Source: Candidatus Jorgensenbacteria bacterium
Lineage (GTDB): Bacteria > Patescibacteriota > Minisyncoccia > UBA6257 > GWB1-50-10
DNA: 64,000 nt
Assembly (NCBI GenBank): GCA_011050075.1
Contig: DRGK01000017.1
Span: 39,838 to 103,837 of the forward strand
Direction: 5' to 3'
Shown here one piece after another: positions 3,061-37,541 of this stretch (the first letter of the stretch is position 1; every line of letters begins with the position of its first letter). Position numbers and translations under genes: made by a program. The notes beneath the pieces are model-generated. The model searched no databases and was not told where the DNA came from. It saw only the letters and a program-made list of their open reading frames with translations.

Positions 3061-3091
3061 AAAAACAGCTCAATCTACTGAGCTGTTTTTT
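3061..3091 (+). terminator. Rho-independent terminator
   Basis: aaaaaCAGCTCAatctacTGAGCTGtttttt hairpin with a U-tract directly after tRNA-Glu. Confidence 0.7.
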
Positions 3092-3107
3092 GATTTTTGA
3101 GCGCTGA

Positions 3108-6433: not shown

Positions 6434-7615
6434 ATGCGCTTACTGCACCATCAATACTACTTTCACTTATTTACGCTGCGTAATAAGGAGATAGACGCGC
6501 TCTATATTGCATTAGCGCTTATTAACTTCGCAGTCGGACTTATTAGCATCTTTGTACCCGTGTATTTTTGGGAACTTGGTATTCCGCTGTGGCAGATCAT
6601 CTTCTTCTATTTTCTGCGGGCAGTTTATTATGTCGCTCTGACATTTTTATTGCTCCCGATTATTAAACGGCTGAGCGATAAGATCATGATGTTTTTGGGA
6701 ATTCCGTTCTTAGTTTTGTACTTCATTGGTCTCGGTTTTATGGATGGTACCACATGGTTGTTTTATGTACTGCCGGCAGCGCTTGCGCTCTACGCGCTGT
6801 TTTTTAATGTTGGATACCACATGGACTTTTCTCTGTCGGCTGATGATGGGCGTATTGGAGAAGAGGTTGGCTTAGGTATGGCCATTATCGGTATTTTAAA
6901 GTTTGCCACCCCGTTTTTGGGTGGATTACTGATACTTTTTGTAGGCTTTTCAGGTACTTTTGTAGTCGCGAGTAGTATTCTGCTGCTTGCAGTGATCCCG
7001 TTCTTTTTCATAAAAGGGCGTAAGTTTTCGCCCGATATCAGTGTATCTTCTGTTATAGATACACTGCGTGATAAAACATTTAAATATTTTCATATCGCAA
7101 TGGTTGGGTATGTTATTAATGCCGTTGGTACGGGAGTACTATGGCCACTGTTTCTATTTTTCATCATCGGCAGTATAGAAGGTCTGGGAGGATTGATCTC
7201 ATTGGGCTTACTCCTTGGTGTAGCAACCACGTTCGTGGTTGGTAAACTGGCAGATAAGCATATGGGAAGGGGGATTATGTCAGCGGCTGCTATCGGTGAG
7301 GCTGTGGTATGGTTCGTGCGAGCGGTAACGCAGCAGTTTCCGGTGGTTGTCGGCAGCCACATTGCCAGCGCAATGTTTAAGGATGCACTGTTGCCGATAT
7401 GGACGCGAACATACTACACACTACTGCGCACAAAAAAGAAGTTGGGTATGTACGTACTCGGGCAGGAGGCATCATACAACATTATTCGAATGGTGGTACA
7501 TCCCATTCTGATGTTGATGGCGTATATATTGCCGTTGGACCAGTTCTTTACCGTTTCGTTTTTACTCATAGGTGCTGCATCATTTCTCTTTATGGCGATA
7601 AATCACAGCTCGTAG
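6434..7615 (+). CDS. Polytopic membrane protein, MFS-like transporter
   Basis: 393 aa with ~10-12 hydrophobic helices; no catalytic motifs. Confidence 0.5.
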   Translation: MRLLHHQYYFHLFTLRNKEIDALYIALALINFAVGLISIFVPVYFWELGIPLWQIIFFYFLRAVYYVALTFLLLPIIKRLSDKIMMFLGIPFLVLYFIGLGFMDGTTWLFYVLPAALALYALFFNVGYHMDFSLSADDGRIGEEVGLGMAIIGILKFATPFLGGLLILFVGFSGTFVVASSILLLAVIPFFFIKGRKFSPDISVSSVIDTLRDKTFKYFHIAMVGYVINAVGTGVLWPLFLFFIIGSIEGLGGLISLGLLLGVATTFVVGKLADKHMGRGIMSAAAIGEAVVWFVRAVTQQFPVVVGSHIASAMFKDALLPIWTRTYYTLLRTKKKLGMYVLGQEASYNIIRMVVHPILMLMAYILPLDQFFTVSFLLIGAASFLFMAINHSS

Positions 7616-7981: not shown

Positions 7982-9115
7982 TTATTCAGATTTTAGATAC
8001 TTTTTGTCTTTGAGCTTTTTTGGCAATAAACTTTCCTTCGTGTATTTTTCATATCCCTTTCCATACCCGATATCTTTCATAAGTTTGGTGGGTGCATTTC
8101 GCACTTCCATTGGAATAGGTAGGTTCTTATACTGTTTGACGTCTTTTGCTGCTAACTGGTATGCCTCGTACGCACCTCTGTTCTTTTTGCACTTGGAAAG
8201 ATAAACCGTGCCGTGTGCGAGATTGATAGCACACTCCGGAAGTCCAATGATCTCAACTGCGCGGAATACATCGTTTGCAATCACGAGCGCCGCTGGATTG
8301 GTCAAACTTACATCCTCGCTCGCGAAGATAACCATCCGGCGGGCGATAAACTTTGGGTCTTCTCCGGCATCAATCATGCGTGCCAGATAGTAGAGTGCCG
8401 CGTCGGGCTGGCTTGCTCGCATGCTCTTAATGTATGCACTAATCGTATTGTAGTGTTCATCTCCCTTCTTGTCGTAACGGATGTGTTCGGACTGCACTGC
8501 TTCGCGCAGGATTTCAATTGTTACCGTATCATGCAGTTGTGATGTGTGGTCGAGTACAGTAAGTGCCTGCCGAGCATCACCGTTCGCAACGCGGATAAGC
8601 CAGTCGCGTGCATCCGTGTTAAGTTTAATACCCGACCGGTCAATAATCTTACCCATTGCCTCTTCGGACAGTTCGTGTAGGACGAATACACGACATCGAG
8701 ACAAAAGCGGTGCGATGACTTCAAAGCTTGGATTTTCAGTGGTAGCTCCGATAAGGGTTAGTTCTCCGTTCTCAACATACGGCAGGAGAAAGTCCTGCTG
8801 TGCTTTATTAAACCGGTGAATTTCATCCAAAAAGAGTACTTTCGGACGGTCGCCGATATTCTCCTGTAAGATTTTCCGTATATCCGCCTTGCCGGCCGAG
8901 ACGGCAGAGTGTTCGTAGAACTTCGCATCAAGCGCGTTCGCATAGATACGGGCAAGCGTTGTTTTTCCCACACCCGGAGGACCCCATAAAATAAATGAGA
9001 ACAGATGTTTTTGTTCTGTAGCATTCCGGAGTGGCTTTCCTTTTCCTACCAGGTGTTCCTGACCAATGAGTTCATTTAGAGTTTTTGGTCTAATACGAGA
9101 CGCGAGTGGTTCCAT
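7982..9115 (-). CDS. rarA: Replication-associated recombination protein A (AAA+ ATPase RarA/MgsA)
   Basis: N-terminus MEPLASRIRPKTLNELIGQEHL; Walker A GPPGVGKTT; RarA/WRNIP-like C-terminal domain. Confidence 0.85.
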   Translation of the reverse strand: MEPLASRIRPKTLNELIGQEHLVGKGKPLRNATEQKHLFSFILWGPPGVGKTTLARIYANALDAKFYEHSAVSAGKADIRKILQENIGDRPKVLFLDEIHRFNKAQQDFLLPYVENGELTLIGATTENPSFEVIAPLLSRCRVFVLHELSEEAMGKIIDRSGIKLNTDARDWLIRVANGDARQALTVLDHTSQLHDTVTIEILREAVQSEHIRYDKKGDEHYNTISAYIKSMRASQPDAALYYLARMIDAGEDPKFIARRMVIFASEDVSLTNPAALVIANDVFRAVEIIGLPECAINLAHGTVYLSKCKKNRGAYEAYQLAAKDVKQYKNLPIPMEVRNAPTKLMKDIGYGKGYEKYTKESLLPKKLKDKKYLKSE

Positions 9116-9412
9116 GTTTATAGTATGTATCTAAAACAAAACCAGCTCAAATAAAATCTAACGGCTCAGCTCAGGTGAGCCGATAAAAGTCAAAGCAAGC
9201 CCCTAACTTGTGGTTAGGGGCTTAGTTTGGGAGGACTACTCCCACCGGCAAGCAAGCTGGTTATTGGCGATGTTCCGGGTGACGTGAACGATAGGTACGA
9301 GAACTTGGAGGTGATCTCATAAGACGTTCTCCTATCAGGTTATCAGGGTTTATCGGTTGTCAACGTACATAGTACAAGGAGGTACTGTGTATGTTCATTA
9401 TAGCATATATTT

Positions 9413-24067: not shown

Positions 24068-24092
24068 AACGGCTCAGGGGAGTTGAGCCGTT
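24068..24092. terminator. Repeated intrinsic-terminator hairpin (AACGGCTCA-ggggagt-TGAGCCGTT), copy 1
   Basis: Identical 25-mer also at 24839-24863; a T-tract on the minus strand follows the hairpin. Confidence 0.6.
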
Positions 24093-24125: not shown

Positions 24126-24524
24126 CTAAAAACCTGCGAGCACATAGAAACCAGGACCGGTTATGAACAACATAAGTGCAATTGCAAGCAAGAGCAGATC
24201 ATATGACCAATCGGTAAATGGTTTTTCTGTTTTTGTTATCTTCCAGATGGTTCCCATTATCATTTCAAAACCAAATAGTGCCACCGCAAGCCACATATAC
24301 ATGCCGATGATTACGGCGATACCGCCAAAGAACTCGACAAACGCAACGATTGTGCCCCAGAATATACCCGGTTTAAAACCCATCTTCACAAAATCTTCAG
24401 CGTTTGACTTGAGGTTTATAATCTTGGGATACCCATAATAAATCATGATAACACCCATGATTATTCTTACGATGAGAATTACTATGTCACTAAAAGGAGC
24501 TAATGGAGTAAGTATGCTTAACAT
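24126..24524 (-). CDS. DoxX-family membrane protein
   Basis: 132 aa, 4 TM, DoxX-like arrangement. Confidence 0.5.
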   Translation of the reverse strand: MLSILTPLAPFSDIVILIVRIIMGVIMIYYGYPKIINLKSNAEDFVKMGFKPGIFWGTIVAFVEFFGGIAVIIGMYMWLAVALFGFEMIMGTIWKITKTEKPFTDWSYDLLLLAIALMLFITGPGFYVLAGF

Positions 24525-24526
24525 AA

Positions 24527-24808
24527 TTATTTGATTACTTGTACATTTTTCCAGAAAGCAAAGTAACCTTTGATTTGTTTCGCTGCGTCAGAAGGTTCTG
24601 GATAAACCCAAGCAGCATCTTCTGATACTTCGCCATCAACCGTGACATTGTAATAGTGAGCAAGACCTTTCCATGCACACGTGTAGTCATTGCCGCTTTT
24701 TTGTAGATATTCCATCTTGACCGAATCGGCAGGAAAATAATGATTGTTTTCAACCACTACGGTTTTATCACTTTCGGCAATAATTTTATCTTTGTATATA
24801 GCTTTCAT
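24527..24808 (-). CDS. DUF427-family protein
   Basis: MKAIYKDKIIAESDKTVVVENNHYFP…WKGLAHYYNV; the longer ORF-track start appears to use TTG, so the ATG at MKAIYK is preferred. Confidence 0.55.
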   Translation of the reverse strand: MKAIYKDKIIAESDKTVVVENNHYFPADSVKMEYLQKSGNDYTCAWKGLAHYYNVTVDGEVSEDAAWVYPEPSDAAKQIKGYFAFWKNVQVIK

Positions 24809-24838
24809 ATTCTTATGATACCACAATAATATAAAAAC

Positions 24839-24863
24839 AAACGGCTCAGGGGAGTTGAGCCGT
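24839..24863. terminator. Repeated intrinsic-terminator hairpin (AACGGCTCA-ggggagt-TGAGCCGTT), copy 2
   Basis: Identical to 24068-24092, with ~50 nt of similar flanking sequence that includes a TATTAT -10-like box. Confidence 0.6.
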
Positions 24864-24887
24864 TACGTTTATGGTGGTTTTCTTGCT

Positions 24888-25431: not shown

Positions 25432-25695
25432 TTACTGATTGATCAATTTTAATTTTTCCTCTCGATTCCAACTTTTTATCTCTGCCTCCCGCTTCCTTGC
25501 ATCTTTTAATGTATCAAAGGTTTCTGAATGTACCAGTATAACCGGTCTGCGAATCTTCGTATAGTGCGCGCCCCACTTTGAATCGTTATGCTGTTTTAGT
25601 CGTTTATCAAGATTGTTTGTACATCCGATATACAGAGATGTGTCTGCGCATTCCAGAATATAAACTTTATGTTTCACAGATTGATAATTAGGCAA
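25432..25695 (-). CDS. GIY-YIG nuclease-domain protein
   Basis: VYILECADTSLYIGCTNNLDKRLKQHN. Confidence 0.75.
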   Translation of the reverse strand: MPNYQSVKHKVYILECADTSLYIGCTNNLDKRLKQHNDSKWGAHYTKIRRPVILVHSETFDTLKDARKREAEIKSWNREEKLKLINQ

Positions 25696-25839: not shown

Positions 25840-25910
25840 CTGCCGGGGAAGGAATCGAACCCTCATTACCGCCTCCAAAGGGCGATGTCCTACCATTAGA
25901 CGACCCGGCA
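25840..25910 (-). tRNA. tRNA-Gln (anticodon TTG)
   Basis: Reverse complement reads TGCCGGGTCGTCTAATGGTAGGACATCGCCCTTTGGAGGCGGTAATGAGGGTTCGATTCCTTCCCCGGCAG; anticodon loop CTTTGGA. Confidence 0.8.
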
Positions 25911-25991: not shown

Positions 25992-27272
25992 ATGCGGGCG
26001 TACAACCCGACATTTGGTGTTCGTTCCTATGTTATAATACACTCAATGCGAAACATCAAATCGCTGAAACTGGCTGTTGAACGACAAATCGCCAACCCGC
26101 CCGGTGAAGTTTCTATTATTGAACTCGTTGATTTATTTGTGGAGTACGCATACAGCTCGCGTGCATCGGATATTCATATTGAACCGGGTGACGATAACGT
26201 AATAGTACGCCTGCGTATTGACGGTATCCTGCAGGATATTTTCACTTTACCCAAGGAACTGCAGTCAGAAGTGATCAGCCGCATCAAAGTACTTTCGGGA
26301 CTAAAAACGGATATTCATCACGTACCGCAGGATGGTAGGTTCAAAGCGAAGATAGGGGATGTGGAGGAGATTGATGTTCGTGTTTCCATTGCACCTACAT
26401 ACTCCGGTGAAAATGCAGTGATGCGTATCTTGGCGGAGACATCGCAGAAGTTCAAATTGGAAGACATTGGGTTTGATAAAAAGCAGTATCGTATGATAAT
26501 ACGCGCGATACACAAGCCGTATGGTATGATCCTCGCGAATGGTCCGACCGGCTCTGGAAAAACCACAACGCTTTACACGATTATCAAGGAGCTCAGTACC
26601 CGTGCGGTATCAATTATCACCATTGAGGACCCTATTGAATATTCTATTGAAGGCATTACTCAGATTCCCGTCAATGTACAGGCGGGGTTGAATTTTGCGA
26701 ACGGACTGCGTTCTATCTTACGGCAGGACCCGAACATTATCATGGTAGGGGAGATTCGCGACACCGAGACGGCGAGTATCGCGGTTAATGCGGCACTGAC
26801 CGGCCATCTCATGCTCTCAACGCTGCACACCAATGATGCGGCAACCACATTTCCGCGTCTTCTGGATATGGGTGTTCCTCCGTTTCTCGTCGCCTCAACA
26901 GTTAATATTGTTATTGCACAGCGTCTGATGCGAAAGGTATGCCAGAGTTGCCGGCAGCAGAAGTTCCTTTCTATTGCTGATATTGAACATCTTGGTCCGC
27001 TCGCCGAGGTATATATAGAAAAGAAAGTGTATACCGTAGGTGCCGGATGTGATGATTGTGACGGACTGGGTTATCGGGGCAGAGTTGGCATCTTTGAAGT
27101 ACTGTCGGTTAATGAGGAAATTCGTTCACTGATTGCTAACCGCTCAAGCGCTTCACAGATCAAGCAGGCGGCCGTAAAAAATGGTATGCATACCATGACT
27201 CAGGGAGCATTTGAAAAAGCAATACAGGGTGAAACGACCATTGAAGAAGTACTCCGTATGATATATGAGTAA
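25992..27272 (+). CDS. pilB: Type IV pilus assembly ATPase (PilB/GspE family)
   Basis: Walker A GPTGSGKTT; Asp/His boxes; tetracysteine CQSC…CDDC; GYRGRVGIFEVL; short form lacking the long N-domain. Confidence 0.85.
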   Translation: MRAYNPTFGVRSYVIIHSMRNIKSLKLAVERQIANPPGEVSIIELVDLFVEYAYSSRASDIHIEPGDDNVIVRLRIDGILQDIFTLPKELQSEVISRIKVLSGLKTDIHHVPQDGRFKAKIGDVEEIDVRVSIAPTYSGENAVMRILAETSQKFKLEDIGFDKKQYRMIIRAIHKPYGMILANGPTGSGKTTTLYTIIKELSTRAVSIITIEDPIEYSIEGITQIPVNVQAGLNFANGLRSILRQDPNIIMVGEIRDTETASIAVNAALTGHLMLSTLHTNDAATTFPRLLDMGVPPFLVASTVNIVIAQRLMRKVCQSCRQQKFLSIADIEHLGPLAEVYIEKKVYTVGAGCDDCDGLGYRGRVGIFEVLSVNEEIRSLIANRSSASQIKQAAVKNGMHTMTQGAFEKAIQGETTIEEVLRMIYE

Positions 27273-28368
27273 AAAACCGCGTAAGAATATACAAGTATCA
27301 CTCTTGCATTTTTTCAATGTTACGTTGATACCGTTACAGGAAAAGGTTAACTTTGCGCGCCATCTCTCAATAGGCATCAAAAGCGGCTTGTCTTTGCTCG
27401 ATACGTTGGATTTGATCAAACAGCAGACGTCGTCCAAGCGTTTTTCTGCGATGGTATCTCGTATCATGGAGGATATTAATAACGGCCAGTCATTAGCAGA
27501 TAGTCTGGAACGGTTTAATTATGTGTTCGGCCACCTGTTTATTAGCATGGTTCGCGTCGGAGAAGTTGGCGGGAACTTATCGGGAACGCTCGCGTATCTT
27601 TCTAACGAACTAAAAAAACAGAGAGAGCTTCATAATCGTGTGAAGTCGGCAATGATATACCCCGCGATTATTTTGATAGTGACGATAGGCATCACCGTGT
27701 TTCTCACTCTCTTTATTTTTCCTAAAATTCTCCCTATATTTCAAAGCTTGGGCGTACAGCTGCCGGCCAGCACACGGCTGATCATACAGACACTTTCATT
27801 TCTTGATAATTTTGGATTCTTGTTATTAGTCAGTATGGCGGTTTTTGCTATTGCGGTACGGGCGCTTCTATTTATACAGAAAGTTCGATACGGTATGCAC
27901 GCAGTGTCTTTGCGAATTCCATTTGTCTCGACGTTAATCATTAATGTAACCATTACGAGCTTTAGTCGTGTGCTCGCGGCGCTCCTCAAGAGTGGTATGA
28001 CACTACTGGACGCGCTCGTAGTTGTAAAAACAACTATCTCAAATTTGGTGTATCAGAAGCACGTCGAACAAATGATAGATGTTGTTCGACGTGGTGAAGA
28101 GATGACCAAGTACCTCAAGAAATATCCAAAACTATTCCCGCCGATGCTTGTCGGAATGATCAAGGTAGGTGAGGGAACCGGTAATTTAGAAGACAACCTG
28201 CTCTATCTTGCCGAGTACTACGAAAGCGAAGTTGATGAGACCGTCAATAACCTAACCACCATTCTTGAGCCGCTTCTCCTGCTCTTTATGGGTGTCATCG
28301 TTGGATTCATAGCGCTTTCCATTATCACACCGATTTATAAAGTAACGCAGGGACTAAACATTCGCTAA
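27265..28368 (+). CDS. pilC: Type IV pilus / type II secretion platform protein (PilC/GspF family)
   Basis: Two GspF repeats, 3 TM, ~367 aa; overlaps the pilB stop. Confidence 0.85.
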   Translation: MSKKPRKNIQVSLLHFFNVTLIPLQEKVNFARHLSIGIKSGLSLLDTLDLIKQQTSSKRFSAMVSRIMEDINNGQSLADSLERFNYVFGHLFISMVRVGEVGGNLSGTLAYLSNELKKQRELHNRVKSAMIYPAIILIVTIGITVFLTLFIFPKILPIFQSLGVQLPASTRLIIQTLSFLDNFGFLLLVSMAVFAIAVRALLFIQKVRYGMHAVSLRIPFVSTLIINVTITSFSRVLAALLKSGMTLLDALVVVKTTISNLVYQKHVEQMIDVVRRGEEMTKYLKKYPKLFPPMLVGMIKVGEGTGNLEDNLLYLAEYYESEVDETVNNLTTILEPLLLLFMGVIVGFIALSIITPIYKVTQGLNIR

Positions 28369-28853
28369 TGCTGTCCCTCAAACGTAAAACCTATAAACCC
28401 CTACCTACCGGCAGGCAGGTAAAATCTCAAAAAGGGTTCACTCTCCTTGAGATAATGATCGTTATTGGCCTCTTTGCTTTGCTCGTAGGCATTAGTATAC
28501 CGTTTGGACTTGATGTATACCGCAGCTACGTACTAATTTCCGAAACACGAAATATGGTTAGTTTCCTGCGACGCGCGGAGACGTTGTCTTTCACCAATAC
28601 CAGGAATGATTCGTATGGAGTTATGGTCATGAACGATCGATTCGTTGTGTTTCGTGGTGCGTCGTTTGCAACGCGTGATACTGCATTTGATGAAGAGTAT
28701 CTACGCTCGCCATTAGTAATCGTGTCGGGTATCGCGCATATTGTGTTTGCTGCGGTGACGGGAAGACCAGACATAATGGGTACCACAACATTCAGCAACG
28801 GCGTAAATGAACAAACAGTATTTATTAATGAACATGGCACACTTTTCTGGTGA
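28368..28853 (+). CDS. Prepilin-type (class III signal) pseudopilin with long basic leader
   Basis: …KPLPTGRQVKSQKG|FTLLEIMIVIGLFALLVG: Gly(-1), Phe(+1), Glu(+5) then a hydrophobic helix. Confidence 0.75.
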   Translation: MLSLKRKTYKPLPTGRQVKSQKGFTLLEIMIVIGLFALLVGISIPFGLDVYRSYVLISETRNMVSFLRRAETLSFTNTRNDSYGVMVMNDRFVVFRGASFATRDTAFDEEYLRSPLVIVSGIAHIVFAAVTGRPDIMGTTTFSNGVNEQTVFINEHGTLFW

Positions 28854-30249
28854 AAAGGGACAATCTCTCATAGAAATTCTTATTGCGTTCACACTCATCG
28901 TGCTTGGTATCGGGTCGGCGACGATACTGGTGTTTGGTGGACAAGGGCTGCTTATTGACAGGGGAAATACGGTACAAGCTCGTTCTCGTGCACAGGAAGG
29001 GTTACTTGCGGTAGAGCAGATGATACAGAACGATTGGGATTCGGTGTCAAATGGTACGTATGGCATTGTGTTCACCAACGGTACCTGGCAGCTATCCGGC
29101 GAAAGTACTATTGATGACCGATATACACGGTATGTCTCGGTAACCAGTATTGATGATAATCGGAAGGAGATTACAAGCAGTGTTGTATGGGAAACGGGTG
29201 GAGAAGGTTCCCGGATTGTTGAGTTTGTAACACTGGTTACCAACTGGCAAAATGTTGCACCGCCGTCACCGGATCCGGGAGATACGGGAGGTGGCGGAGT
29301 GAGCGGTAACTGGCAAAACCCGAGAACACTGGGTTCTGTTGATCTGGGTCCGGGAAATGAAGCATCAGACATTGATGTGATCAATAAGATCGTTTATATG
29401 TCTGCCACCGCGTCTTCTAAGAACAAGCCTGACTTCTTTATTATTGATGCAACCGATGGGGAAAATCCGGTAATGATATCTGAGCTTAATACCGGTCCGT
29501 CACTCAATTCCATTGATGCCAGCGGCAACTATGCATATGTGGCAAACGATGATGCGCAGGCACAGTTGCAGGTTATTGATGTGAGTGACATTAATAATCC
29601 TTCTATTACTGCGTCCCTTGAAGTTGCTGCTGACGCTGGAGGTACTGCTATATTCTTTACTAACGCAAAAATATATCTGGGCACCTACCAAAACGGTGCG
29701 GCTGAGTTTTATATCATTGATGTTTCGGACCCCTTAAACCCCAGCGTACTAGGCTCGTATGAAATGAACGGAACGGTGCGTGATATATATGTACGTAATA
29801 GTCGTGCATATATCACCGTTGAACGGGAAGTGGATACGGTAGCTATACTAAACGTTTCAACTCCTTCATCAATCGTATCGGAAGGAGGCGAATATATTGA
29901 TGAAGCATACGGTATCATGAGCATACGACCAGCACTCACCTTTATCGGCATTGATACTGATTTGGTTATTGCGGATACTGCGAATGCAGCCGCAGTGGCT
30001 ACAATTGGCTCTATCGGAATTGGCGGGAACGTCAATGATATTGCGGTGAGGGATTATCTCGTCTTTATTGCAACATCAAATAACAACAAAGAGTTCCAGA
30101 CAATTAACGTATCTGATCCAAGTAACCCATCAGTTCATTCTTCTTTTAATTTTTCGCAGGTTGGAACCGGTATTGATTACGAGGATAATATTGTCTACAT
30201 CTCAGTGAGAAGCAATGACGCTTTACGTATCATCACATCATCTCCATGA
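28807..30249 (+). CDS. Pilin-like protein fused to an LVIVD-repeat beta-propeller domain (candidate pilus tip/adhesin)
   Basis: N-terminus …GEKGQSLIEILIAFTLIVLG (prepilin-like); at least 4 LVIVD-type repeats (AYVANDDAQAQLQVIDVSDINNPS; IYLGTYQNGAAEFYIIDVSDPLNPS; AYITVEREVDTVAILNVSTPSS; VFIATSNNNKEFQTINVSDPSNPS). Confidence 0.65.
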   Translation: MNKQYLLMNMAHFSGEKGQSLIEILIAFTLIVLGIGSATILVFGGQGLLIDRGNTVQARSRAQEGLLAVEQMIQNDWDSVSNGTYGIVFTNGTWQLSGESTIDDRYTRYVSVTSIDDNRKEITSSVVWETGGEGSRIVEFVTLVTNWQNVAPPSPDPGDTGGGGVSGNWQNPRTLGSVDLGPGNEASDIDVINKIVYMSATASSKNKPDFFIIDATDGENPVMISELNTGPSLNSIDASGNYAYVANDDAQAQLQVIDVSDINNPSITASLEVAADAGGTAIFFTNAKIYLGTYQNGAAEFYIIDVSDPLNPSVLGSYEMNGTVRDIYVRNSRAYITVEREVDTVAILNVSTPSSIVSEGGEYIDEAYGIMSIRPALTFIGIDTDLVIADTANAAAVATIGSIGIGGNVNDIAVRDYLVFIATSNNNKEFQTINVSDPSNPSVHSSFNFSQVGTGIDYEDNIVYISVRSNDALRIITSSP

Positions 30250-30764
30250 AGACTCATAAACCCCTACCTACCGGCAAGCAAGTAAAATCTCAAAAAGGAT
30301 TCACGCTTATTGAAGCGCTTATCTATGCCACGCTATTAGGTATCTTTTTAGGCAGTGTCATTATTGTAGTTGGGAACATTCTTGCCTCTACCGATAGCAC
30401 ACTGGTGCGTAATGAGGTACTTGCCAATCAAGAGTTCGTTGAACAGAAACTTTCATGGCTTGCAGAACAGGCGACCGCGGTTACAGAACCACTCTCAGGA
30501 AGTTCCTCAACGCGAGTAGTTTTCACTGAACCGATATCCGGCACTAATCCGGCAATTTTTGAACTGCAGGACGGGAAAATTATGCTAACCCTCGGTTCCG
30601 GTGAAAGCGCTGCGCTGACCAATAATCGCGTGCGCGCGTCCGATTTCACCATTACCCACTACACATTAAACGGTGCATCACTGATACGAGTCTTATTTGG
30701 ACTTGAGCACATTGTCTACAGTCAAGTAACGAGCACGACCACACTCACCTTTATTATTCCGTAG
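30246..30764 (+). CDS. Prepilin-type pseudopilin with long basic leader (paralog of 28368..28853 at the N-terminus)
   Basis: MKTHKPLPTGKQVKSQKG|FTLIEALIYATLLGIF. Confidence 0.75.
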   Translation: MKTHKPLPTGKQVKSQKGFTLIEALIYATLLGIFLGSVIIVVGNILASTDSTLVRNEVLANQEFVEQKLSWLAEQATAVTEPLSGSSSTRVVFTEPISGTNPAIFELQDGKIMLTLGSGESAALTNNRVRASDFTITHYTLNGASLIRVLFGLEHIVYSQVTSTTTLTFIIP

Positions 30765-30767
30765 CAT

Positions 30768-31163
30768 ATGCAACACGATACATATCAACAGGGGTACGTA
30801 GCGGTTATGAGCGCTATTATCATTACCGCTATTCTGCTTGTCGTCGCATTGACCTTTAGTTCCAGTAGTTTTATGGGTAGGTTTGATACACAAGCAGTGG
30901 AATTCAAGATACTGACACGGAACTTAGCGCAGGGATGTATCGCGCATGCACAGTTAATGCTCGCGCTGGGAAGCTATACTGGCAATGAGGATGTGGTAGT
31001 GGGTGCATATACCTGCCGCGTCGTCTCCGTTACGCAGGGGAGCGGTATCATAACAGTGCAGGTAACTGCAATCATAGAGGACCACACTACAAATCTTGAA
31101 GCAGTCTTGGATAGCGCTACACTCGCTATTAATTCAGTTATAGAGATAAGTACGTTTGAGTAA
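30768..31163 (+). CDS. Membrane-anchored hypothetical protein in the pilus operon (PilX/minor-pilin-like?)
   Basis: N-terminal hydrophobic helix (VAVMSAIIITAILLVVAL) without a canonical G-F-x-x-x-E; operon position. Confidence 0.4.
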   Translation: MQHDTYQQGYVAVMSAIIITAILLVVALTFSSSSFMGRFDTQAVEFKILTRNLAQGCIAHAQLMLALGSYTGNEDVVVGAYTCRVVSVTQGSGIITVQVTAIIEDHTTNLEAVLDSATLAINSVIEISTFE

Positions 31164-31230
31164 ATATGGTATACTATCAATAGATAAGCTTTTTTAAGAA
31201 AAGGTCGTGTTTTTTTCAACATTATAGTAA

Positions 31231-31701
31231 ATGTCTAAAAATAGAGTGCAAAAAGTTAAAACAGAAGGTGGTTTTACATTAATTGAACTTTTGGTTGTTA
31301 TCGGCATCATCGCCATCCTTGCGGGTGTGGTGATTGTTGCCCTAAACCCGGCGCGACAGTTCGCGCAGGCACGCAACAGCCAACGTTGGTCAAATGTAAA
31401 TGCGATTTTGAATGCTGTAGGTCAGAACTTAGCTGATAACCGTGGGATATTCACCTGTGCTGCAGGAGTTATTCCAACGTCTGCGACAAATATGTCATCC
31501 TCTACATATGATATAGCGACATGTATTGTACCAACATACATGCCGACTATGCCATTTGACCCAAGTGATGCGAGCGCATACTACACCGATACGGCTGATT
31601 ACAACACGGTGTACAGTATTGTACGCAGTGCGACGACCAGCCGAATTACTGTCTCTTCACCATCAGCAGAATTAGAAGAAGCAATTGCAGTAACGAGATA
31701 G
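31231..31701 (+). CDS. pilA: Type IV major pilin (PilA-like) with prepilin leader
   Basis: MSKNRVQKVKTEG|GFTLIELLVVIGIIAILAGVVIV; own promoter and strong terminator; C-terminal Cys pair (FTCAAG…IATC). Confidence 0.8.
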   Translation: MSKNRVQKVKTEGGFTLIELLVVIGIIAILAGVVIVALNPARQFAQARNSQRWSNVNAILNAVGQNLADNRGIFTCAAGVIPTSATNMSSSTYDIATCIVPTYMPTMPFDPSDASAYYTDTADYNTVYSIVRSATTSRITVSSPSAELEEAIAVTR

Positions 31702-31721: not shown

Positions 31722-31749
31722 AAAACCCCGGGATATGTCCCGGGGTTTT
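31722..31749 (+). terminator. Strong rho-independent terminator after the major pilin gene
   Basis: AAAACCCCGGGAtatgTCCCGGGGTTTT. Confidence 0.75.
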
Positions 31750-31815: not shown

Positions 31816-32088
31816 ATGAAATTGCCGGAGTTTTTTAAACCAATTTTGTGGTCTTATGACTTTCCTGCCATAGATTCTGAGAAGAACAAGAAAGTTATTA
31901 TTGTGAATACGATAAATTACGGTGATTTAAAGCATTGGCATTGGTTGATACAACATTATGGGAAAGAGGCAGTTAAAGATGTTTTAGAACAGATCCCTTC
32001 AAGTGAAATAAGACCGCGGGCGCTTCGTCTCGCGACAACTATTTTCTCTATTAAAAACTTCAATTATGCACCTCGAGGTATTAACTGA
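31816..32088 (+). CDS. Small protein partner of the downstream nucleotidyltransferase (possible antitoxin-like component)
   Basis: 90 aa; overlaps the next ORF by 23 nt (coupled); AT-rich segment. Confidence 0.35.
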   Translation: MKLPEFFKPILWSYDFPAIDSEKNKKVIIVNTINYGDLKHWHWLIQHYGKEAVKDVLEQIPSSEIRPRALRLATTIFSIKNFNYAPRGIN

Positions 32089-32683
32089 GAAGGGCAAAGA
32101 AATTTTTTCCAGGCTTGATCGTTTTAATAAATTTTACCTCGCTGGTGGGACAGCATTAGCTTTGCAAATCGGACATAGGGCTTCAATTGACTTTGACTTA
32201 TTTTCCAAAAAAGAAATCCAGAAGGACTTTCTGTCTGAGATTGAGGAAGCTTTTCCTGGAGAGAACATATCAGTAGTTGTAAATAATCCCGATGAGGTAA
32301 CTGTTTTCGTAAGTGAAACGAAAGTTACTTTTTTGAAATATCCTTTCCCGTTGATATATGACCTTGTTAATTATGAAAGCGTAAACTTAGCAACCATTAA
32401 AGAAATAGCCGGAATCAAGGCCTATACAATTGGCAGAAGAGGATCTTTTAAAGATTACGTAGATTTATACTTTATTCTTTCTGAGAAGTATTTTTCTCTG
32501 AATGAGATTATTGACGTAGCTGAAAAGAAATACGGAAGTGATTTTAACTCACGACTTTTTCTTGAACAGCTTCTTTATTTGGAAGATATTACCGATACTG
32601 AAATTGTATTTTTAAAAGACAGCGTAGATAAAAAAGAACTAAGAAAATTTTTTGAGGAAGAAATAAAAAAGATTAAGATATAA
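32066..32683 (+). CDS. AbiEii/DUF1814-like nucleotidyltransferase (toxin-like NTase of a two-gene module)
   Basis: FYLAGGTALALQIGHRASIDFDLF matches the AbiEii N-terminal GGTAL…S/EDxDF core. Confidence 0.5.
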   Translation: MHLEVLTEKGKEIFSRLDRFNKFYLAGGTALALQIGHRASIDFDLFSKKEIQKDFLSEIEEAFPGENISVVVNNPDEVTVFVSETKVTFLKYPFPLIYDLVNYESVNLATIKEIAGIKAYTIGRRGSFKDYVDLYFILSEKYFSLNEIIDVAEKKYGSDFNSRLFLEQLLYLEDITDTEIVFLKDSVDKKELRKFFEEEIKKIKI

Positions 32684-35131: not shown

Positions 35132-36547
35132 ATGCCCCGCTTTTTAAATAGAAATTCCTTAGTTTTCATAGCACTTGCTACACTTGCAACTTTGCTTGTC
35201 TTTACCGTTTTGCCCTCTATCACAAATGCAGGCGGTACGTTTACCACCAACCAAGACAGTTTTAGGTTTAAAGGCGATACAGGCGGAGAAACGGCAACAG
35301 ACTGGATTGATGCCGAAGACACGAATATTACTCAAGCAAAAAACAGCAACTTTCGCATACGTATTCACTTTCATGAATCAGGTAATGCAGCCGGCGATGT
35401 GACACCTCTTTTAGAGTACAAAACTGCCTCTGGTAATGCATGTGCTAATACGACAGGGTGGACAACTATTACAACTGCAACGACAAATGCATTTGCTCTT
35501 GTCGATTCGTCACAGTTTGTTGAAGCAGTTGCAACTACTGAACAGTTATCAAGCTTTGGCGGAATAGGTTTTGTTGCTGGAGAACTCTTGGACCAAACTA
35601 ATCCCGGTACAATCATTACCATCGGTGCAAAAAACGAAAGTGAGTATGTATGGAACATGAAAGCAACGGACAATGCGGTCGATGGCACGGCGTACATATT
35701 TCGGGTGAGTAATAACGGCACCAACTTAACAAACTATAATGCCTGCCCGCAGGTAACAGTTCCTGCGGGCAATGCACCGCCCGTTGTTTCAAACGTTGCG
35801 TTGGATGGAGGAACAGCAATCACGCTCACAGAAAACACAACTAAAGCTGTTAGCGCTACGGCAGATGTATCAGATCCGAACGGCGCTGACGATATTATTT
35901 CAGCGACCTCAACCATCTACCGTTCCGGTGTCGGTGCGGGATGTACCGCTGATGATGAGAATTGCTACAAAATAGCGAGCTGCACGTTTTCTGGTGCGAC
36001 GAGTACCGTGACCTGCACGGCGAATATACAGTTCTTTGCCGACCCGACCGATGCAAGCTCTACTGCTTATTCTGCTCAGGATTGGCAGGCAGAAATTACG
36101 GTAACCGACTCTGCCAGTGCAACCGGTGCATCGAGCACTCTATCCGGCGTAGAGCTCAATACACTCTGGGCTATCGATATAACCGCAACTATTAACTACG
36201 GGGCTGTTAGTCCAACCGCAGATACAGGGAGTACAAATCAAAGCGTTACGGTTACCAACACAGGTAATGCGGCGATCGATATAGAGGCATCGGGGACTGA
36301 TATAACGCTTGGCGGTAGTACGATAGGAGTTGCCAATCAAAAGTATGCGACCTCCACCTTTACGTACTCGAGCTGTACAATCTGTACGGCACTTTCCTCA
36401 ACCCCCGCTGCATATGAGGTTGATTTACTCAAGCCGACCTCGGCCACGCCGGTTACAGATTTAATCTACTGGGGACTTGCGGTGCCAAACGGCACTGCGC
36501 AAGGGGTGCACAGCGGAACCAATACCTTTACCGCAATAGGCGATTAG
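35132..36547 (+). CDS. Secreted Thr/Ala-rich surface protein, paralog A
   Basis: Signal peptide; conserved Cys-containing module (RSGVGAGCTADDENCY); C-terminal VTVTNTGN… CARDB/DUF11-like module; ends …GTNTFTAIGD. Confidence 0.55.
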   Translation: MPRFLNRNSLVFIALATLATLLVFTVLPSITNAGGTFTTNQDSFRFKGDTGGETATDWIDAEDTNITQAKNSNFRIRIHFHESGNAAGDVTPLLEYKTASGNACANTTGWTTITTATTNAFALVDSSQFVEAVATTEQLSSFGGIGFVAGELLDQTNPGTIITIGAKNESEYVWNMKATDNAVDGTAYIFRVSNNGTNLTNYNACPQVTVPAGNAPPVVSNVALDGGTAITLTENTTKAVSATADVSDPNGADDIISATSTIYRSGVGAGCTADDENCYKIASCTFSGATSTVTCTANIQFFADPTDASSTAYSAQDWQAEITVTDSASATGASSTLSGVELNTLWAIDITATINYGAVSPTADTGSTNQSVTVTNTGNAAIDIEASGTDITLGGSTIGVANQKYATSTFTYSSCTICTALSSTPAAYEVDLLKPTSATPVTDLIYWGLAVPNGTAQGVHSGTNTFTAIGD

Positions 36548-36593
36548 TACAGGGTTGAATATGATATAATATACATAAAGAGGATGTAATAAT

Positions 36594-37541
36594 ATGAGAA
36601 GTACACTTTCTCTTCTTTTAAAAGTTTATATTTTCGCGATTCCCCTCGCGCTGCTACTGGTCGGGGGACTTTTAATGCTCACAAACACTATTTTAGCAGG
36701 CACTTCAAGCACATCAGTAACCGTTCAAGGCGCTGTCCCCACAGTTACCGTTGTTAACATTTCTCCCGATCCAATTATCCCGACCGAAAATGCAACGACG
36801 AGCATTACCATTACTGCAACAATTTCCGATTCAAACGGATGCGATGATGTATTCACAAGCGGTACTATCGCGGTCGCACTCTATCGGTCAGGTGTTGGTG
36901 CCAGTTGCTCGGTCGATGACAACAACTGTTATCAGAACATCACTTGGGCGGAGGTTGGCAATACCTGCGGGGGCGGTGCAGATACAAGCGGGGATATGGT
37001 TGCCACGGCAACGATATGGTACTTTACCGAAGCAACCGATGCGAGTTCAACATACTCAGGGGAAACATGGCAGGCTCAGGTCAAGGCAGTTGATGAGTCT
37101 AATGCAAGCTCTACCGCTACCGACGCGTCGCCCCCTGAGCTCAATTCGGTATATGCTCTCACTGTTGACAGTGCCATTGCGTACGGTTCTATGTCAGCAG
37201 ATGCTACGAGTACCTTGTCTGAGATTGGACAGTCAACGACGACGGTAACCAACACGGGAAATTACAAGATTGATACCGAGGTATCGGGTACCGATATGAC
37301 GGGTTCAGGTACCATTATTGCAAGCAAACAAAAATATGCTACCTCATTGTTAGGATATGAATCACTTACATACACACTCTCAACGTCTGCTACTGCAAGA
37401 GATTTAAATATTGTGAAAGCGACCTCTTCTTCTACGCCGTCAACGCAAGATACCTACTGGGGTATTTCTATCCCTAGCGCTCAGGCGGAAGGAGGTTATA
37501 GCGGAACCAACACATTTACCGCTATCTATTCAGCCGATTAG
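36594..37541 (+). CDS. Secreted Thr/Ser-rich surface protein, paralog B of 35132..36547
   Basis: Signal peptide; same modules (RSGVGASCSVDDNNCY; TTVTNTGNYKID…; ends …GTNTFTAIYSAD). Confidence 0.55.
   Translation: MRSTLSLLLKVYIFAIPLALLLVGGLLMLTNTILAGTSSTSVTVQGAVPTVTVVNISPDPIIPTENATTSITITATISDSNGCDDVFTSGTIAVALYRSGVGASCSVDDNNCYQNITWAEVGNTCGGGADTSGDMVATATIWYFTEATDASSTYSGETWQAQVKAVDESNASSTATDASPPELNSVYALTVDSAIAYGSMSADATSTLSEIGQSTTTVTNTGNYKIDTEVSGTDMTGSGTIIASKQKYATSLLGYESLTYTLSTSATARDLNIVKATSSSTPSTQDTYWGISIPSAQAEGGYSGTNTFTAIYSAD

Follow-up and report, generated by a model that had tools for sequence, protein, structure and literature searches.

Two minor pilin genes in a Candidatus Jorgensenbacteria pilus operon share a leader-coding DNA repeat, probably through recent gene conversion

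The question raised by this locus is why two minor pilin genes, whose products cannot be aligned beyond their N-terminal parts, should begin with almost the same stretch of DNA. The locus is a pilus operon at positions 25992-31701 (+) of the 64,000-nucleotide (nt) stretch of Candidatus Jorgensenbacteria DNA analysed here (contig DRGK01000017.1; referred to below as the window), and encodes PilB, PilC, prepilins A, B and C, an open reading frame (ORF) termed D, and the major pilin E. The two genes concerned are those of the minor prepilins A and C, and the DNA that they share encodes their leader peptides, the segments that precede the prepilin cleavage site. We conclude, with a probability of roughly 70%, that the near-identity of the leaders reflects a recent, leader-limited gene conversion in which both partners are expressed minor pilin genes. 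The features concerned are as follows; lengths of proteins are given in amino acids (aa).

28368..28853 (+): minor prepilin A, 161 aa (PF07963, E = 3e-7; TIGR02532)
28368..28436 (+): leader-coding part of A, 23 codons to Gly-1 (motif scan, ORF start)
28386..28450 (+): direct repeat copy 1, 65 nt, with its 49-nt core at 28393-28441
30246..30764 (+): minor prepilin C, 172 aa (PF07963, E = 1e-6)
30246..30299 (+): leader-coding part of C, 18 codons to Gly-1 (motif scan, ORF start)
30249..30313 (+): direct repeat copy 2, 65 nt, with its 49-nt core at 30256-30304

The repeat of about 49 nt described in the initial annotation is real, except that its first copy begins one base earlier than was noted. 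The two cores are identical at 46 of 49 nt (94%), and the ungapped similarity of the copies extends over 65 nt at 86%. No second match to the 49-mer was obtained in 100 dinucleotide-preserving shuffles, and the window contains no third copy at up to three mismatches. An assembly artefact was ruled out, the repeat being present in independent assemblies (NCBI, ENA, Logan and the metagenome contig SDBV01034841.1). The three differences within the core are AGG/AAG (Arg/Lys) and the synonymous pairs CAG/CAA and GGG/GGA. The tract has sharp borders: identity is 94% over the 49 nt as against about 47% across the following 75 nt of mature-coding sequence, and the tract reaches only a few codons beyond the cleavage site. 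At the protein level, BLASTP aligns only residues 7-41 of A with residues 2-36 of C, and detects no similarity between A and C beyond residue 41, that is, past the leader and the N-terminal helix.

These observations separate the two origins that had been offered together, namely recent duplication or gene conversion. Whole-gene duplication is excluded, and conversion is favoured by the lack of similarity past residue 41 and by the alleles common to both genes, described below. Nor is it credible that the repeat is left over from an old tandem duplication that yielded A and C. Both are indeed small pilins of one operon, with a generic pilin N-terminus in common. However, their mature parts are unalignable, each has its own separate orthologues across many species, and a leader DNA identity of 94%, synonymous sites included, stands beside sequence diverged beyond recognition. 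In prepilins the leader tends to be under the least constraint, and here it is the best conserved part in DNA, which points to a recent copy and not to old common ancestry.

Further evidence is provided by other strains of the species. The sample is small (seven A and four C sequences at the DNA level, more at the protein level); other loci that were compared are designated here by L numbers. The mature A and C proteins are 88-98% identical across strains whose leaders differ. The leader of A has at least four structural alleles and that of C has two, and natural leaders within the one species range from 11 to 40 residues. The alleles of A are the long form found in the window, a form with a 27-nt in-frame deletion (MLSLKRKTHKPQKG, KTHKPQKG), a short form MLSLKRKTSNLKPQKG (KTSNLKPQKG), and, in L168 (GCA_022572505.1), the long form with 17 additional residues placed exactly at Gly↓Phe-Thr (...KSQKGFTPTPKFFGVGSQNERG↓FTLLE; here and below the arrow marks the predicted cleavage site). 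The long allele of C has Thr/Ala, Lys/Arg and Lys/Glu variants, and its short allele is MK[TI]LNLKSQEG. When aligned as DNA, long and short alleles are one 21-nt block apart.

All four combinations, A-long, A-short, C-long and C-short, were found, and a CTA/CTG variant is likewise present in both paralogues. The occurrence of long and short alleles in both genes implies transfer between the paralogues, or else identical recurrent events. In addition, the paralogues within one genome differ at only 2-3 of 49 nt (window and L088), which does not exceed the divergence of gene A among strains (the window and L007 differ at 4 of 49 nt), and this supports gene conversion. The short alleles, which lack the 21-nt block, are also homologous between the genes: that of A in L002 and that of C in L168 are identical at 32 of 38 nt (84%). 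The leaders are thus shared independently of the insertion of the block.

On this basis the following course of events is proposed. An older, shorter leader would already have been common to A and C before any lengthening. A 21-nt GC-rich palindrome may then have been inserted into this shorter leader, hence the long form, and would now be decaying. Recent non-allelic gene conversion (concerted evolution), restricted to the leader-coding segment, would have acted between the two genes, and the conserved codons GGN-TTY-ACN-CTN-NTN-GAR could supply the homology that anchors such an exchange. The leader is expected to be cytoplasmic and to be cut off, so that its sequence may be almost free to drift.

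Several points weigh against this reading. It is drawn from allele patterns, no conversion event having been observed directly. Contigs that carry both genes number only three (the window, L088 and L168), and in L168 the alleles disagree, A being long and C short, so that homogenisation is incomplete. The start codons of A and C are predicted and not mapped. With just three differences between the copies, selection on the leader peptide is statistically untestable. Finally, the palindrome within the 21-nt block is also found, at up to two mismatches, at pilin gene starts in unrelated Patescibacteria, which could mean that it has a function.

Sharing of leader DNA alone among the paralogues of an operon is not confined to the window. 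Among about 170 loci, it was also found in L010 (between A and C, at 7061-7124 and 9056-9119), in L119 (three pilins), in L138/L141 and in L163 (at 1116 and 2525). Local alignment scores lie at 15-30 (13 at most in shuffles), and identity in the mature-coding DNA is only 45-56%. The sequence shared is peculiar to each of these lineages and unrelated to the others. Weaker sharing in L134/L136 was seen only in the first leader scan.

What kind of signal do the leaders represent? Those of A (23 aa, MLSLKRKTYKPLPTGRQVKSQKG↓FTLLEIMIVIG...) and C (18 aa, MKTHKPLPTGKQVKSQKG↓FTLIEALIYAT...) both begin at the sole in-frame start, the sequence offering no other in-frame start codon for the leader of A. 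Both proteins score above the gathering cut-off of PF07963 (21.2), with 30.1 bits for A and 28.2 bits for C. Each has a hydrophilic leader ending in Gly-1, followed by Phe+1 and Glu+5 (...KSQKG↓FTLLE in A and ...KSQKG↓FTLIE in C), and at least 13 hydrophobic residues out of 16 past +6 (the scan criterion). The genes of an assembly ATPase and a platform protein (T2SSE and T2SSF) lie upstream, with overlapping stop and start codons. A basic leader, Gly, Phe, Glu+5, some 20 hydrophobic residues and adjacent PilB/PilC homologues are what is found with class III signal peptides, the substrates of PilD/GspO-type peptidases. The leaders of A and C are best explained as ordinary, basic class III signal peptides, and to judge from the family they would be removed after Gly-1 by a prepilin peptidase. 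The major pilin has a different leader, as had been noted (MSKNRVQKVKTEGG↓FTLIE), and so does prepilin B (...GEKG↓QSLIE).

Whether these leaders are much longer than typical, as had been claimed, depends on the comparison. Published type IV prepilin leaders range from 6 to 26 aa (PMC4471445), and 18 and 23 aa fall within this range. Leaders of at least 15 aa are present in 112 of 371 dereplicated pilins from related loci, as counted by a first-ATG rule that overestimates some leaders. Strong structure (z < -2.5) is commoner in leaders of at least 20 aa than in short ones (13% compared with 1%). Compared with their direct orthologues, the window leaders are indeed long. A scan with PilC gave 80 loci from species-representative genomes, of which 13, all from other species, keep the gene order A-B-C(-D-E). 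In these the A leaders have 4-12 aa and most C leaders 5-12 aa; two C leaders are longer, at 17 aa and, by the first-ATG rule, 21 aa. Unlike other class III signal peptides, the window leaders also combine near-identical DNA in two non-homologous minor pilins with insertions and deletions among strains.

Membership of the type IVb pilins, which also have long leaders (15-30 aa), was considered and rejected. Like type IVa pilins and pseudopilins, the mature proteins begin with Phe; the prepilins, of 161 and 172 aa, give small mature proteins (138 and 154 aa); the neighbouring machinery is of PilB/PilC type, with no type IVb-specific component seen; and the long leader is a recent gain at strain level and not a feature of the class.

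A further proposal was that a conserved extended leader points to a dedicated peptidase, chaperone or sorting step for A and C. This is very improbable. It would suit a leader that is common to two minor pilins but not to the major pilin, whose sole amino-acid difference is conservative (Arg/Lys), and it would suit the recurrence of A-type/C-type sharing in a few other lineages. However, the conservation that it calls for was sought in relatives and is absent. None of the 13 syntenic operons has a KPLPTG-like leader, and C orthologues at 43% and 36% identity have the unrelated leaders MNPKDKNG and MRKTLHSKFYIQNSTE. A degenerate DNA pattern for the leader peptide gave no matches in the representative genomes of 185,579 species. 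Within the species the long leader is polymorphic for presence, through insertion or deletion, while the mature proteins are nearly identical. The two leader copies of L010 differ by changes of which 8 of 9 are non-synonymous, concentrated in a hairpin loop, and other lineages have the palindrome in two or more reading frames or in a 5' untranslated region (UTR). Moreover, the 45 window ORFs scanned include no prepilin peptidase gene (no Peptidase_A24), and none was found by a GxGD motif scan; Peptidase_A24 is encoded in other pilin clusters of relatives (L172, L175 and L176). A dedicated recognition step is therefore not supported. Because the shared long leader varies among strains and is lacking in relatives, it appears to be an evolutionary footprint and not a special recognition signal. 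Among the matches listed in a literature search on Patescibacteria pilin leaders, no paper had these terms in its title or abstract.

The 21-nt block that separates long from short alleles has a structure of its own, in the form of a near-palindrome.

28400..28419 (no strand): near-palindrome CCTACCTACCGGCAGGCAGG, two mismatches from the perfect form CCTGCCTGCCGGCAGGCAGG
30263..30282 (no strand): more decayed palindrome CCTACCTACCGGCAAGCAAG, four G-to-A changes from the perfect form

The copy in A lies inside the block, with 8 of its 10 positions paired; the form in strains L003 and L007, CCTGCCTACCGGCAGGCAGG, has 9 of 10 paired. All four changes in the copy of C are G-to-A, which fits a mutation bias, and two C alleles encode LPAGRQ, as the perfect sequence would. 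Neither window copy folds better than shuffled sequence (z = -0.5 for A and +0.5 for C, not significant), which suggests that the palindrome is decaying in this species. Within the 64-kb window it is found nowhere beyond the two leader copies, and neither copy has a clean target-site duplication. A scan of the window for GC-rich hairpins gave 52, against about 25 in shuffles, with no family resembling the palindrome. There is no Rfam family for it, and a literature search on its sequence gave no match. The strand of a hairpin, judged from wobble pairs, would be antisense in the window and sense in L130, an inconsistency from which no conclusion was drawn. Other lineages carry the palindrome at or near pilin genes, as follows.

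L130: at or beside the Gly-1 codon of A
L163: in B and C
L164/L165: in B
L011: in D
L014: in the 5' UTR of E
L004: between D and E
L027: three copies

In L134 and L138 the palindrome falls within a linker rich in Pro and Ala. Three of these loci call for separate comment. In L130 (3040-3110) the interval from the PilC stop to Gly↓Phe-Ser-Leu-Ile-Glu of pilin A contains no ATG; it is occupied by the palindrome, with an A run on one side and a T run on the other in the manner of a bidirectional terminator, and the candidate starts of pilin A are a CTG or an upstream TTG inside pilC. In L011 (9363-9480), an orthologue of ORF D carries the two arms of the palindrome, separated by 21 nt, immediately ahead of its Gly↓Tyr codons. 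The Logan contig of L004 ends (3089-3107) in a Nextera adapter, CTGTCTCTTATACACAT, which is assembly contamination.

The palindrome is not specific to pilins. The exact sequence is present in 35 stretches of IMG/VR viral contigs (L181-L215), with G+C contents of 0.38-0.68 and up to six copies per contig. One of these copies lies in a tRNA-Met variable arm and one in tRNA D-loop-like sequence (L205 2239-2330; L212 515-534), and some have flanking direct repeats, such as CACAGAGA on both sides in L183.

It could be argued from this distribution that a single small mobile palindromic element was inserted independently into A and C. The block that distinguishes the alleles is a near-perfect palindrome, the perfect form is found at or near the Gly-1 codon or the pilin start in L130, L163 (two genes), L164, L011, L014, L004 and L027, and it is multi-copy on some viral contigs. 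A second insertion is moreover known in the species. In L168 (6067-6126), gene A has a 51-nt in-frame insertion at its Gly↓Phe-Thr codons, which includes an 11-bp perfect hairpin, CCCACACCAAA-ATTC-TTTGGTGTGGG, and has the flanks GGATTTACC and GGGTTTACC; neither the window nor any of the other strains has this insertion. Nevertheless, we regard independent insertion as unlikely to account for the repeat. The shared tract exceeds the palindrome on both sides, by 8 nt on the upstream and by about 22 nt on the downstream side; alleles of the short form, which lack the palindrome, are themselves homologous; and the two leader copies, with no clean target-site duplication, are the only ones in 64 kb.

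Small palindromic repeats that sit in frame within protein-coding genes are familiar from the Rickettsia palindromic elements and other families. The window block resembles the Rickettsia elements in being a short in-frame palindrome at a permissive site, present or absent among close strains and decaying. It differs from them in its size of 21 nt, in having no dispersed copies in 64 kb, and in the lack of an evident target duplication.

Alternatively, the repeat might act in cis, as an RNA hairpin that tunes translation or attenuation, or as direct recombination sites through which the body of A and all of B are deleted. This is distinctly less probable than independent insertion. Relatives do have strong hairpins at the same position, among them those of L010 and a family with covarying stems described below. 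The U-rich Phe-Thr-Leu-Ile-Glu codons of AT-rich genomes, preceded by a GC-rich hairpin, approximate an intrinsic terminator, and in L130 the stem is followed by GTTTTTCA. In the window, however, the palindromes have two and four mismatches and are followed by TAAAATCTCAAAAAGG, not by a U tract. Scans for intrinsic terminators and promoter consensus sequences give nothing at the repeat positions, and Rfam has no match at E <= 1 there or in seven related loci. The palindrome is dispensable, natural alleles being without it, and none of the 10 members of the C cluster is a deletion product in which the start of A is fused to the body of C.

The hairpins in relatives include a second family, referred to as P2, whose arms are absent from the window. 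The 64-nt repeat shared within L010 takes the form of a hairpin of 14-20 bp (z = -6 to -7) with arms CCAGCACCA(C/A) and (G/T)TGGTGCTGG; the 5' arm follows GGN-TTY-AY, and the 3' arm has the Gly-1 codon as its last. Arms of the form CCAGCACCAC and GTGGTGCTGG, bounded by GGN-TTY-AC, were found in L010, L019, L090, L098, L099, L112 and L169-L177, and the 51-nt insertion in L168 has related arms, as in L099. Over six loci the 17-bp stem is 98% paired, with six compensatory pairs and a covariation score reached by none of 500 shuffles. The hairpin loop, of about 82 nt, is unconserved but provides the start codon of the pilin. The following sites were delimited.

L098: 2692-3080
L090: 1815-2040
L099: 2025-2275
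L112: 1915-2045
L169: 2501-2870
L172: 2501-2885
L175: 2501-2883
L176: 2467-2893

Directly after PilC, and 5' of the element, L098, L090 and L099 retain an orphan start of the form ATG..GGN TTY AC, with translations such as MKGFT, MRSGFT or MREKLAGFT. In L099 the element is present as a tandem pair, and each copy is bounded by GTTTAC. A duplicated internal Gly-Phe might be expected as a general mark of insertion in long leaders, but it is not enriched (8 of 123 against 7.4 expected), and it holds in the particular cases of L010, L051, L168 and L099. A search for P2 elements in viral contigs gave 21 matches, which were rejected as chance: they lie inside an unrelated prophage gene encoding RGFTQHHFFAGIG.

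Some of these hairpins are associated with small GIY-YIG genes (81-98 aa). The one in L098, an ORF of 82 aa (PF01541, E = 3e-16), has a left arm on either side and ends in a stop codon that overlaps the new ATG of the pilin gene; L090 has a degraded remnant of such an ORF. Five of the 285 homologues of the L098 protein were looked up. Four of them, at 68-84% identity, are all in pilin clusters, directly 5' of a hairpin-bearing pilin start, and three of these four adjoin a prepilin peptidase gene. The fifth, at 60% identity, is in a non-pilin locus and is enclosed by ATCCAGCACCTTTTG...CAAAAGGTGCTGGAT. The window has a free-standing GIY-YIG ORF of 87 aa (25432-25695, -) from another subfamily, 37% identical to the L098 protein. 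It is not by the leaders: it lies beside a tRNA gene (25840-25910, -), just 5' of pilB, with TACGTTA on both sides. Related ORFs in L013, L114 and L132 are found among duplicated tRNA fragments.

On the basis of these associations in loci outside the window, we hypothesise that the DNA upstream of GGN-TTY-AC in Patescibacteria prepilin genes could be a safe harbour for hairpin elements, with leader conversion driven by GIY-YIG nucleases. This wider proposal is tentative and its truth is doubtful. An in-frame insert would be removed along with the leader, and so would be harmless. The family linked to GIY-YIG genes may represent a mobile element with target specificity, able to regenerate a functional signal peptide, the original start being orphaned upstream, a new start being supplied in the loop, and re-insertions occurring in tandem. 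The long leader in the window might then be the decayed footprint of a similar mini-palindrome, and breaks made by the putative nuclease at the conserved pilin motif, if repaired from the paralogue, could have led to conversion between the leaders of A and C.

Such loci have much in common with free-standing GIY-YIG homing endonucleases and derivatives like miniature inverted-repeat transposable elements. They have an ORF of 81-98 aa and inverted-repeat arms at Gly↓Phe-Thr, a GGN-TTY-AC target on both sides, hairpins without an ORF, and tandem copies. The window differs in having none of these features, and the mobility, target and nuclease activity are all putative.

For gene conversion between the leaders of A and C, the closest parallel is antigenic variation at pilE/pilS in Neisseria, where DNA is transferred non-reciprocally between pilin paralogues and mosaic alleles are found in the population. 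Both cases concern gene conversion between pilin loci. In the window, however, the segment exchanged would be a discarded leader and not an exposed variable domain, so that the mature protein is not diversified; there are no silent cassettes, and both partners are expressed genes of one operon.

The remaining features of the operon are listed here.

25992..27272 (+): PilB/GspE-type assembly ATPase, first gene of the operon (Pfam T2SSE, E = 1e-121)
27265..28368 (+): PilC/GspF-type platform protein (Pfam T2SSF, E = 3e-59)
28807..30249 (+): prepilin B, 480 aa (Pfam LVIVD, E = 4e-11; Beta_propel; pilin motif)
30768..31163 (+): ORF D, 131 aa (hydrophobic N-terminus; syntenic orthologues)
31231..31701 (+): major pilin E, 156 aa (PF07963; orthologues 57-69% identical)
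31722..31749 (+): GC-rich hairpin AAAACCCCGGG-atatgt-CCCGGGGTTTT (hairpin scan)

The PilC stop overlaps the ATG of A (TAATG), and the ATG of C overlaps the stop of B (ATGA). The gene of prepilin B, which is located between the two repeat copies, fuses a pilin N-terminus to an LVIVD/beta-propeller domain. NCBI entry HDY73417.1, from Candidatus Jorgensenbacteria, has the same sequence as protein A and is annotated as a prepilin-type cleavage/methylation protein, and protein C is identical to HDY73419.1 (a metagenome-assembled genome of the same candidate taxon) and to KKL47041.1 (a marine-sediment metagenome). ORF D matches no Pfam family; its N-terminus is pilin-like yet atypical (QQG↓YVAVMS, with no Glu+5), and it may be a pilin-like tip component. 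The major pilin matches the GspG model weakly and below threshold (E 2.5e-7, 30.8 bits with a cutoff of 88.85). The hairpin directly 3' of its gene is probably the operon terminator.

Some further observations were made in the surroundings of the operon. Directly 3' of it (31816-32683, +) are a DUF6922 ORF and an ORF for an AbiEii-type nucleotidyltransferase toxin, which together resemble a type IV toxin-antitoxin or abortive-infection pair. At 35132-37541 (+) are two neighbouring paralogous ORFs for Thr/Ser/Ala-rich surface proteins of 471 and 315 aa, with common C-terminal motifs (...YWG..P....G..SGTNTFTAI) and no Pfam match; they are followed on the 3' side by a membrane-anchored ORF of 343 aa and then by a dockerin/Big_6 protein. 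Upstream of the operon, two identical 25-nt hairpins, AACGGCTCAG-gggag-TTGAGCCGTT (24068-24092 and 24840-24864, spaced by 772 nt), enclose ORFs at 24126-24524 and 24527-24826.

The long leader common to A and C would thus appear to have arisen as a neutral by-product of exchange between paralogues, one that varies with the strain, and to annotate it as a special secretion or recognition signal is unwarranted. The leader of a class III signal peptide is seen here to change freely. This freedom is of practical use for pilin prediction and the calling of start codons in the genomes of candidate phyla, where unusual leaders make Pfam miss pilins. If the wider proposal is true, the pattern of hairpins and GIY-YIG genes would be a new example of selfish DNA that finds a harmless site of insertion in a peptide due to be cleaved off. 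It would also be a possible source of recombination among the genes of pili, which episymbiotic bacteria are thought to use for attachment to their hosts.

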